From Octopus vulgaris (taxonomy: Eukaryota): 64,000 nucleotides of DNA. The stretch covers positions 23,560,001-23,624,000 of the forward strand of contig OX597820.1 in the NCBI GenBank assembly GCA_951406725.2. Reading direction: 5' to 3'. Positions 2,110 through 18,867 of this stretch are shown here, piece by piece. How positions within the stretch are numbered: the first letter of the stretch is position 1; each line of letters begins with the position of its first letter. The position numbers were made by a program, and so were the translations under genes. The notes under the pieces are model-generated. The model was not told where the DNA came from. It made no database searches and was given only the letters and a program-made list of their open reading frames with translations.

Positions 2110-2712
2110 AGGTGGCGAGCTGGCAGAAATGTTAGCATGCCAGGCGAAATGCTTTGCGGTATATTGTCTGCCACTACGTTCTGAGTTCAAATTCCGCCGA
2201 GGTCGACTTTGCCTTTTACCTTTCTGGGTCAATAAATTAAGTACCAGTTACGCACTGGGGTCGATGTAATCGACTTAATCCCTTTGTCTGTCCTTGTTTG
2301 TCCCCTCTGTGTTTAGCCCCTTGTGGGTAGTAAAGAAATAGGTATTTCGTCTGCCATTACATTCTGAGTTCAAATTCCGTCAAGGTCAACTTTGCCTTTC
2401 ATCCTTTCGGTGTCAATAAATTAAGTACCAGTTACACACTGCAGTCAATGTAATCGACTTAATCCCTTCCTCTGTCCTTGTTTAGCCCCTTGTAAGCAAT
2501 AAAAAAAATAAGAAACGTTAGCACGCCAGGTGAAATGCTTAGTGGTATTTCGTCTGCTGCTATGTGCTGAGATCAATTTTGCCTTTCATCCTTTCGGGGT
2601 CAATAAATTAAATACCAGTTACACACTGGCGTCGATGTAATTGACTTAATCCCTTTGTCTGTTCTTGTTTGTCCCCTCTATGTTTAGCCCCTTGTGGCCA
2701 ATAAAGAAATAA
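2110..2712 (+). mobile_element. Family-B tRNA-derived SINE, multimer of ~180-bp units
   Basis: Head ggtggcgagctggcagaa, B-box-like gagttcaaattcc, core gcctttcatcctttcggggtcgataaattaagtaccag in 3 units; flanked by agaat(t/c)attagcacacca direct repeats. Confidence 0.8.
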
Positions 2713-9590: not shown

Positions 9591-9993
9591 AAGGCGGCGA
9601 GCTGGCAGAATCATTAGCATGCTGGGCGAAATGCTTAGCGGTATTTCGTCTGCAGTTATGTTCTGAGTTCAAATTCCGCCAAGGTCAACTTTGCCTTTCA
9701 TCCTTTCGGGGTCGATAAATTAAGTACCAGTTACACGCTGGGGTTGATATAATCGGCTTAATCTGTTTGTCTGTCCTTGTTTGTCCTTTCTGTGTTTAGC
9801 CTCCTGTGGGTAGTAAAGAAATAGGTATTTCATCTGCCATTACGTTCTGGGGTCAACTTTGCCTTTCATCCTTTCGGGGTTGATAAATTAAATATGAGTT
9901 ACGCACTGGGGTCAATGTAATCGACTTAATCTCTTTGTCTGTCCTTGTTTGTCCCCTCTATGTTTAGCCTCTTGTGGGCAATAAAGAAATAAG
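9591..9993 (+). mobile_element. Family-B SINE dimer with ~16-bp target-site duplication
   Basis: Two units; flanked by gaaggtacagtataga / gaatgtacagtataga. Confidence 0.85.
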
Positions 9994-10809: not shown

Positions 10810-11385
10810 TAGAAATGTTAGCACGCCGGGCGAAATGCTTAGCAGTATTTCGTCTGCCGCTACGTTCTGAGTTCAAATTCCGCCGAGGTCGACTTTGCCT
10901 TTCATCCTTTCGGAGTCGATTAAATAGATACCAGTTACGCACTGGGGTTGATATAATCGACTTAATCCGTTTGTCTGTCCTCTCTGTATTTAGCCCCTTG
11001 TGGGTAGTAAAGAAATAGATATTTCGTCTGCTGCTACGTTCTGAGTTCAAATTCCACCGAGGTCGACTTTGCCTTTCATCCTTTCAAGGTCGATTAAATA
11101 AGTACCAGTTACACACTGGGGTCGATGTAATCAACTTAATCCGTTTGTCCCTGTTTGTCCTCTCTGTGTTTAGCCCCTTGTGGGTAGTAAAGAAATAGAT
11201 ATTTCATCTGCTGCTACGTTTTGAGTTCAAATTCCGCCGAGGTCGACTTTGCCTTTCATCCTTTCGGGGTCAATAAATTAAGTACCAGTTACACACTGAA
11301 GTCGATATAATCAACTTAATTCCTTTGTCTGTCCTTGTTTGTCCCCCGCTATGTTTAGCCCCTGGTGGACAATAAATAAATAAGA
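10810..11385 (+). mobile_element. Family-B SINE trimer
   Basis: Three highly similar ~180-bp head-to-tail units. Confidence 0.85.
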
Positions 11386-17494: not shown

Positions 17495-17645
17495 ATATGT
17501 TTGTGTCCATGCTTAAAAATTATTGAAATTAAAAACTATTAAAATATGTTTATGTACCAGACACCAAGTTTAATAGTGACAAAGTTATTTTGTTATTTTC
17601 AAAATTAGTTGAAACAAAGGTAGTGCATTTCAACCGATACAGGCA

Positions 17646-17718
17646 CCTGAAATAACTCAGTTGGGAGAGCGTTCAACTGAAGATCTAAAGGTCCCCGGTT
17701 CATTCCTGGGTTTTGGCA
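17646..17718 (+). tRNA. tRNA-Phe(GAA) pseudogene
   Basis: 73 nt collinear with recalled metazoan tRNA-Phe: cctgaaataactcagttgggagagcgttcaactGAAgatctaaaggtccccggttcattcctgggttttggca; stem and B-box mutations, several at CpG. Confidence 0.9.
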
Positions 17719-17744
17719 TCCGGGGGCTGCCACAAAACATCTTT

Positions 17745-17856
17745 GCTTATGGCCATATCACATTGACAGCACCGGTTCTTGTCTGATCACTGAAATTAAG
17801 CAATGTCGAGTTAGTATTTAGATGGGTGACTGCTTGGAAACCTAGGTGCTGTAAGC
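17745..17856 (+). rRNA. 5S rRNA pseudogene, near full length
   Basis: gcttatggccatatcac...gatcactgaaattaagcaa...ttagtatttagatgggtgactgcttgg...ggtgctgtaagc; complementary ends; small deletion; no oligo-T terminator directly after. Confidence 0.9.
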
Positions 17857-18867
17857 GTCACACATTTAGGGTGGTGAGCTGGCATAAACGTTAGCGCACA
17901 GGGTGAAATGCTTCCAACCAAAACCACTCACAAGTATTTGGACAGCCTGGGGATACAATAGAAGATACTTGCCCAAGGTGCCATGCAGTGGAACTGAACC
18001 TGAAACCAAATGGTAGAAAATTGAACTTCTTAACCATATTGCCATGTCAGCACACACACACAACATGCATGCACATTTACTCAATAAGTCTCTGCAGTTT
18101 CCATCTTTCAAATTTCACTCAAAGCATTGTTCAACCTGAAGATATAGCAGGACACTCAACCAAAGTGTCACATTGTGAAGTTAGACCCAGAATCATATGG
18201 TTGCACAGTGAACATCTTAGCATTTCTTTTTTTCTAAAAATTTAAAAACATTTCTATCAGTCCATTTATCATATAACAGTTACCATTAGTCCAATGCTCA
18301 TCTTTTAGGTTAGTATGGCAAAAAAGATCTTCAAATAGAACATCATCTGCTTCTCAATTCAGCATGATTTCTTTTTGGAACAGATGTAAGAAAACTGTGT
18401 TCAACTACTGTTCTTCAAAGGTATTCTTTCACCATTGGTACTTTCCAATACAAACTTAAAATATTTTTTTGACCCACTTTAAATTCATCATCATCAAACA
18501 TCCATGTTCCATGCTGCCATAGGTTGGACAGTTTTACAGAATCCAATGATCCCAAGTACTGCATCATGTTCCAATATCTGCTTTAGCATGGTTTTGACAA
18601 CCAGATGCTCTTCCTAATGTCAACCACTGTAGCATATAGTGGGTGCACTTTTCATGCCACCAACACTAGTGAGATTGTCATGCAATTTGCAAGACTATGA
18701 AACCCAAAGAGTTGGGTGGAGACTTTGTTAGAAGAATGAGTAAGAATAAAAAAATTTTTAAACTTTGACTAAATTACTGTCCTCCAATACAAACTGAAAA
18801 TATTCTTTCTTCAATCAATTTACATTTCTTAAATATATTATCCATTTATGCCCAAATCATGTAGTTG

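Follow-up and report, generated by a model that had tools for sequence, protein, structure and literature searches.

A decayed tRNA-Phe/5S rRNA/SINE unit in Octopus vulgaris, likely a tripartite retrocopy formed by two template jumps

The window analysed here is a stretch of 64,000 nucleotides of Octopus vulgaris (G000:C7:23560001-23624000), taken from the searched assembly of 2.8 Gb in 227 contigs. It carries a tRNA and a 5S rRNA on one strand, with 26 nt between them. Rfam matches the 5S rRNA at 17745-17857 over model positions 1-120 (74.9 bits) and the tRNA at 17646-17718 over model positions 1-71; with 28 bits (E = 0.0015), the latter narrowly misses the 29-bit cut-off, and ARAGORN called zero tRNAs in the window. 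Behind the 5S rRNA follows the head of a family-B SINE, and the parts abut head-to-tail in one direction, in the order tRNA, 5S, SINE B head. A first-pass annotation, made from the letters of the window, had described a tRNA-Phe(GAA) and a 5S rRNA 26 nt apart on the same strand, with a family-B head shortly after them. The tandem is confirmed by the agreement of the Rfam matches with the bridging contigs described below, and the SINE B head is found to start at 17867. In detail, the locus is composed as follows.

17549..17642, no strand assigned: end of an older interspersed repeat, broken by the insertion (left flank); blastn matches elsewhere in the window and at fetched loci, contig depth high at 17579-17640
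17642..17645, + strand: tRNA 5' leader of 3-4 nt in common with the source gene, the first letter possibly belonging to the flank repeat; 4 of 4 letters identical upstream, 2 of 8 farther upstream
17646..17718, + strand: full-length, decayed tRNA-Phe(GAA), its B box altered at 17703 in this assembly; 65 of 73 letters identical to the intact gene at G000:C1:104015826-104015929
17719..17744, + strand: pre-tRNA 3' trailer with T5 as the Pol III terminator at its end, which a T>C change at 17741 interrupts in the assembled haplotype; 23 of 26 letters identical to the source trailer
17745..17857, + strand: decayed 5S rRNA from nucleotide 1, with deletions of 5 nt and 1 nt; Rfam and alignment to an array gene
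17858..17867, + strand: pre-5S 3' trailer, then a short T run; the first 7 trailer letters also stand behind 91 dispersed 5S copies
17867..17913, + strand: first 47 nt of SINE B from the natural 5' end of the family, remainder absent; 81% identical to a full copy over positions 1-47, solo copies begin alike
17914..18014, - strand: piece of an older family-A-like SINE, inverted and adjoining the broken end; blastn 80% over 101 nt, without a flanking direct repeat

One deletion probably removed the 3' ends of both the SINE B and the inverted SINE A-like piece. A continuation of the left-flank repeat was looked for downstream of the unit and none was recognised, and no host gene was recognised when the open frames of the window were inspected by eye. 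Elsewhere in the window (2158-2490, 9683-9991 and 10846-11382), a 170-185-bp part of SINE B forms head-to-tail arrays. Such arrays are also present behind three capped SINE B copies (L011, L116 and L154).

Contigs of seven out of eight public sequencing runs from five studies (X1-X6 and X9) span the tRNA/5S joint, which is thus not an assembly artefact; of the runs compared, one DNA run may come from the assembly's own sample, and run X9 is labelled with another organism. The runs differ at position 17741. Three of the seven bridging runs (X3, X6, X9) have T at this position, which yields a T5 immediately before the 5S rRNA (17740-17744), and four (X1, X2, X4, X5) have C. The ancestral T5 has been broken by a single T>C change that is still variable. 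Since T is the state of the source gene and both letters occur among the runs, the feature that suggests read-through is a later substitution. The spacer had been called terminator-free; this is right for the assembly, which has no run of four T there, but not for the source trailer, which ends in T5, nor for the three runs that have kept it. The TTTT reported in the 3' stem of the tRNA is likewise present in the assembly, but allelic: six of the seven bridging runs have the C of the source gene at position 17714.

A search with tRNA plus spacer, followed up for the best 40 of 108 candidates, found one other place that covers the whole spacer, G000:C1:104015826-104015929. It holds an intact tRNA-Phe(GAA) gene, recognised by ARAGORN and by Rfam (72.5 bits). 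Its trailer shares 23 of 26 letters with the window spacer and has T5 at its end, and four letters of the 5' leader are in common as well. No 5S rRNA was found by Rfam in 9.9 kb around this gene. Being the sole intact and terminated copy with the trailer among those found, the C1 gene is the probable source of the tRNA part in the window.

The trailer was also followed through the genome. Its exact pattern occurs at five places, namely in the source gene, in the window and in three tRNA pieces that lack their 5' part, and one further trailer copy with a full tRNA came from the tRNA-plus-spacer search (best 40 of 108 candidates). In the four copies other than source and window, the trailer leads into a SINE A (L034 and L064), a SINE B (L065) and an element with reverse transcriptase (L062). 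The last of these (L062, 1500-1900) consists of the 3' piece of tRNA-Phe with its trailer, fused to the 5'-truncated open-frame end of an abundant element. The family of this partner has 21,604 candidate matches in the genome, and Pfam recognises a reverse-transcriptase domain in a longer copy (RVT_1, E = 1e-21); judging by the C-terminal motifs, the element may belong to the CR1 clade. With 5S, SINE A, SINE B and the reverse-transcriptase element behind the same trailer, one precursor RNA thus has four different partners. Apart from these copies, identical tRNA-Phe genes are clustered at G000:C6:130.88-131.01 Mb (L038-L053) in both orientations, together with decayed copies and palindromic spacers.

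The joint of tRNA and 5S rRNA was found once. A second copy was not found in the DNA searches (best 40 of 1245 and best 40 of 108 candidates), and the exact trailer pattern gave no second tRNA-trailer-5S joint; searches of this kind overlook joints that have decayed strongly. A strict pattern, with an intact B box placed 14-44 nt ahead of an intact 5S start, has no match in the genome, and a looser B-box/5S pattern has five matches, none of them tRNA-like by eye. Since an undamaged B box is required in either case, the copy in the window would itself escape both patterns, which exclude well-preserved units only. Two 5.5-kb stretches from the 5S array, together 11 kb, are free of tRNA, and in the 81 upstream rows (45 nt each) read for 91 dispersed 5S copies, no tRNA end stands ahead of any other copy.

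These results bear on what the first-pass annotation had made of the locus, i.e., a relic of a dicistronic Pol III unit as in Yarrowia or the head of a composite SINE, with intact tRNA-Phe-5S source units possibly present in the genome. For such source units, the strict pattern has no match, the 11 kb of array are without tRNA, and the C1 gene is without 5S. The dicistronic relic is at odds with the T5 of the source trailer and the lack of a 5S rRNA within 9.9 kb. The composite-SINE head finds no second copy of the joint to rest on, within searches that strongly decayed copies escape. Uniqueness of the junction and a T-run terminator in the spacer of the source copy had both been named as observations that would speak against the proposal, and the joint was indeed found once and the source copy does have such a terminator at its spacer end.

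The first 31 nt of the 5S rRNA have 160 exact matches in the genome; of the first 100 in the list, an array on C4 accounts for 86, and 14 are dispersed. The array has a unit of ~507 bp and its genes end in long T runs. At G000:C4:35.2-35.3 Mb (L080-L097), it exhibits several trailer types as well as inverted blocks at its left end. Twelve of the 14 dispersed copies continue by eye into the start of a repeat, with several different trailers in between. The 5S end together with the trailer of the window type has 91 exact matches, all of them dispersed, and all 91 were examined. Within 22 nt after the trailer, 65 copies continue into family A, 15 into family C (short tail elements) and four into family B. 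This amounts to 84 out of 91 by automatic assignment and to 85 when one family-A case recognised by eye is included; the remaining six go into other repeat-like starts, from which labels D-H were defined and which are not counted. As a background, 31 of 1500 random positions lie beside a repeat start of A, B or C (25-nt limit).

The joints of these copies are diverse. Among 90 5S copies, we count 65 different combinations of family and linker; the T runs vary between 0 and 8 letters, and stray additional letters occur. Of the 91 copies, 71 align from position 7 of the 5S rRNA or earlier. No plain 5S gene with the window-type trailer is among the 91 exact matches, and we could not trace the 5S part to a source; an array of 5S genes with this trailer may have been lost or left unassembled.

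Several observations on single copies are added here. In L029, the first 14 nt of the 5S rRNA are repeated directly ahead of the full 5S, as after an aborted jump or re-priming. In L139, a complete SINE tail stops exactly at 5S position 6 and another repeat follows, possibly a triple of tail, 5S and repeat. A 5S rRNA with another trailer type is joined to a different tRNA-like SINE in L258 (G000:C7:112797800-112801300). The C-type short tail elements, ~45-55 nt long and of several kinds, have one common start when capped by 5S or U6, which would suit independent RNAs as well as a fixed jump site.

Similar joints are formed by tRNAs and U6. A tRNA B box lies 14-44 nt before a SINE A head at 52 places by the strict pattern, against none with the reversed pattern as a control. 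Among 30 such places that were fetched, 13 have a whole tRNA at the joint, representing eight isotypes (Glu, Asp, Phe, His, Ser, Thr, Leu, Gly); SINE-SINE joints account for two or more of the 30. For U6, 30 loci were fetched from 48 scored; five belong to a tandem cluster and 25 are dispersed. Of the dispersed ones, 16 continue into these repeat starts by automatic assignment, six more into repeat-like sequence by eye, and three do not.

If jumps are serial, joints of U6 to 5S are expected, and a search for them gave three matches (L249, L250 and L251). L251 (G000:C28:29127209-29130235) comprises a full U6, a full 5S and a SINE A at 1405-1630 on the + strand. L250 (G000:C16:15755897-15758925) has ~30 nt of a U6 3' end, recognised by eye and without an Rfam match, followed by 5S and SINE A. 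L249 is a chance match and was not counted. The same holds for the lone 5S-5S match, L252, which is rearranged and has no recognised SINE head behind it.

Did the parts of the window unit arrive together? The tRNA part differs from its source gene by 8 substitutions in 73 positions, three of them at CpG. In the 5S part, 3 of 92 non-CpG and 7 of 20 CpG positions deviate from the majority of its type, and 6 of its 14 substitutions relative to an array gene are at CpG. Both parts thus exhibit the CpG decay that had been pointed out earlier, and their decay levels are comparable. The further suggestion that they arrived and died together is probably correct: the unit is a dead product of retroposition in which a SINE head follows, and its parts have decayed to a comparable degree. 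For the 5S/SINE A copies, the divergence of the 5S and SINE parts is weakly correlated (rho = 0.30, p = 0.03; 51 of 65 copies were long enough to be scored).

At the window unit, whose 3' end is lost, there is no flanking direct repeat or target-site duplication. None of 15 short-tailed sister chimeras has a clear target-site duplication either; the mean duplication length is 4.8 nt against 3.8 +/- 0.5 nt (p = 0.053), and one TA microsatellite drives the excess. With no such duplication at the window unit, nor clearly in the sister chimeras, insertion in a single event is not proven.

Implementing these observations, the locus is likely a dead, one-off tripartite retrocopy of pre-tRNA-Phe, pre-5S and a SINE head, made in one retroposition event by two end-to-end template jumps, and we hold this reading with good confidence. 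The parts are identified, the tRNA matches an intact gene, the T5 is ancestral, and joints of this kind recur throughout the genome. For the window unit itself, we infer a single event, a jump mechanism and an enzyme of the LINE type. A LINE-type reverse transcriptase would first have copied a family-B SINE RNA up to its 5' end and then continued on a nascent 5S transcript, entering at the oligo-U 3' end of this RNA and running through to nucleotide 1. In a second jump, it would have moved on to a tRNA-Phe transcript, still unprocessed and likewise ending in oligo-U, of which trailer, tRNA and leader were copied. The 3' part of the SINE would later have been deleted, and point changes, one of them still allelic, would have broken the terminator.

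Capped SINEs begin where solo copies begin, and the joints lie at natural 5' ends; truncated 3' partners exist in smaller number (L062 and L027). A natural start of the 3' partner, combined with a T-run end of the 5' partner, fits an end-of-template jump to an oligo-U 3' end. Jumps of this type are made by the R2 reverse transcriptase, with non-templated additions required, according to the excerpted text of PMC8857657. By analogy, non-templated additions may explain the extra letters at our joints. We lean slightly towards a more general statement, namely that the retroposition machinery in this genome routinely jumps serially, end-to-end, onto nascent Pol III transcripts with oligo-U ends. 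Nearly every dispersed 5S and many tRNA and U6 copies would then have been carried along at the 5' ends of SINEs, and triples from two jumps would arise at a measurable rate.

Primary Pol III transcripts are expected to carry 3'-OH and 5'-triphosphate ends, and this is relevant for the possibility that the RNAs were joined by an RtcB-like ligation and retroposed afterwards, as in human U6/L1. The resulting DNA would look identical, U6 takes part in joints of the same kind here, and in human cells RtcB ligation precedes U6/L1 retrotransposition (PMC6789731, in part). The same excerpts state, however, that RtcB ligation requires a cyclic phosphate and a 5'-OH, and that a 3'-OH or a 5'-triphosphate sharply lowers ligation by the purified enzyme (PMC6789731), which makes ligation the less likely route. 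In addition, the natural start is retained in the 3' partners (5S from position 7 or earlier in 71 of 91 copies, SINEs like solo copies), and many kinds of unprocessed precursor serve as 5' partners, so that we consider ligation first unlikely. Somewhat less likely again is a stepwise nested insertion, the alternative named for tripartite elements in the excerpted text of PMC4476161, in which tRNA, 5S and SINE would have arrived separately, each at the T run, or else at the end, of its predecessor. A SINE-dense genome without a visible target-site duplication would suit such a course. Against it, all classified joints point the same way, the T run being followed by the next element's 5' start, and the part ages correlate, if weakly (rho 0.30, p 0.03). 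The intact genes inspected (5S genes of the array, the C1 tRNA gene and the U6 cluster) offer the same T runs, and none has a SINE head directly behind.

We give little credit to the window unit being a copy from a composite SINE family, headed by tRNA and 5S, with a master gene of its own. 5S-headed composite SINEs are known, HaSE3 being an example (excerpts of PMC3272025), but the ancestral T5 would halt Pol III ahead of the 5S, and no second copy of the joint was found by searches that are blind to strongly decayed copies. Furthermore, the 5S/SINE joints are mostly unlike one another, and the SINE A partners vary at subfamily-like positions. Least credible of all is the relic of a Yarrowia-type dicistronic tRNA-5S gene. 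Strand, order and short distance agree with it, as does the interrupted T run of the assembly haplotype; yet the source trailer has a T5 without a 5S behind it, the T5 is kept in three of seven runs, and two array stretches are without tRNA. Moreover, Yarrowia has 48 intact units with parts 4-7 nt apart (PMC2566860, in part), compared with one decayed copy and 26 nt here. Thus, the double template jump remains our preferred reading.

From a biological point of view, the locus itself is a dead accident, and its importance lies in the genome-wide pattern. This pattern widens the template-switch chimeras, which in vertebrates involve mostly U6, to whole precursor tRNAs and 5S rRNA in an invertebrate, with dozens to hundreds of copies, and a proposed birth step of new SINE heads is seen to occur repeatedly. 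For annotation, it is a warning: adjacency of tRNA and 5S, or of U6 and 5S, can in such genomes be a by-product of retroposition and not a transcription unit, and the same can apply to many dispersed copies that pass for 'tRNA genes' or '5S genes'. If the serial-jump reading is true, the chimeras preserve, like fossils, the sites at which Pol III started and terminated, also for a 5S type whose source was not found in the assembly, and they keep new SINE heads in constant supply.

In our literature search, no description of such chimeras in octopus or other cephalopods was found; subscription papers, Repbase reports and supplements may have them. The following comparison refers to the excerpted parts of the articles cited. 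The dicistrons of Yarrowia lipolytica resemble the window unit in that a tRNA lies immediately upstream of a 5S on one strand (PMC2566860); apart from their number and distances, they differ in being intact units, whereas the spacer in our single decayed copy is a terminator-bearing trailer. SINE3 and HaSE3 have a 5S in front of a tRNA-type SINE, and template switching was proposed as their origin (PMC3272025). These elements multiplied from a master and have one common structure, in contrast to the window joint, which was found once. Families are told from independent chimeras by shared structure in PMC4494074, and by the same reasoning the window unit is not a SINE family.

Closer to our case are the chimeras U6/Mon-1 in the platypus, U6/AnolisSINE2 and those of U6 with L1, L2 and RTE, which involve several LINE clades (PMC4476161). 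As in the window unit, a Pol III RNA with an oligo-U end is placed ahead of a SINE or LINE; there, however, the partner is mostly U6 and chimeras with SINEs are few, whereas here we observe 5S and many pre-tRNAs with dozens of copies each. The mammalian 5S/L1 and tRNA/L1 chimeras likewise have 5S and tRNA fused to a retroelement (bioRxiv 10.1101/2025.02.02.635956), but these are mostly truncated, antisense and due to twin priming, while the octopus copies are mostly near full-length, in sense orientation and equipped with trailers.

The best counterparts are double-switch triples, i.e., WEIRD/Mg-SINE/MGL in Magnaporthe grisea and mammalian triples (PMC2104539). These also consist of three RNA copies in one direction with full-length 5' parts, and two template jumps were proposed for them. 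Full-length 5' parts are found in the window unit as well (tRNA model 1-71 and 5S model 1-120, plus leader and trailers). Unlike these triples, all parts here are of Pol III type, and two of them are unprocessed precursors with trailers. One further feature of that description deviates: instead of a random 5'-truncation of the 3' part, SINE B and most of the A and B partners start at the natural 5' end. A target-site duplication around the whole chimera also belongs to the description; no direct repeat was found around the window unit, but its 3' end has been lost. The window unit is therefore a variant of the template-switch chimeric retrocopies that shares part of their feature list, with three Pol III-type RNAs joined end to end.
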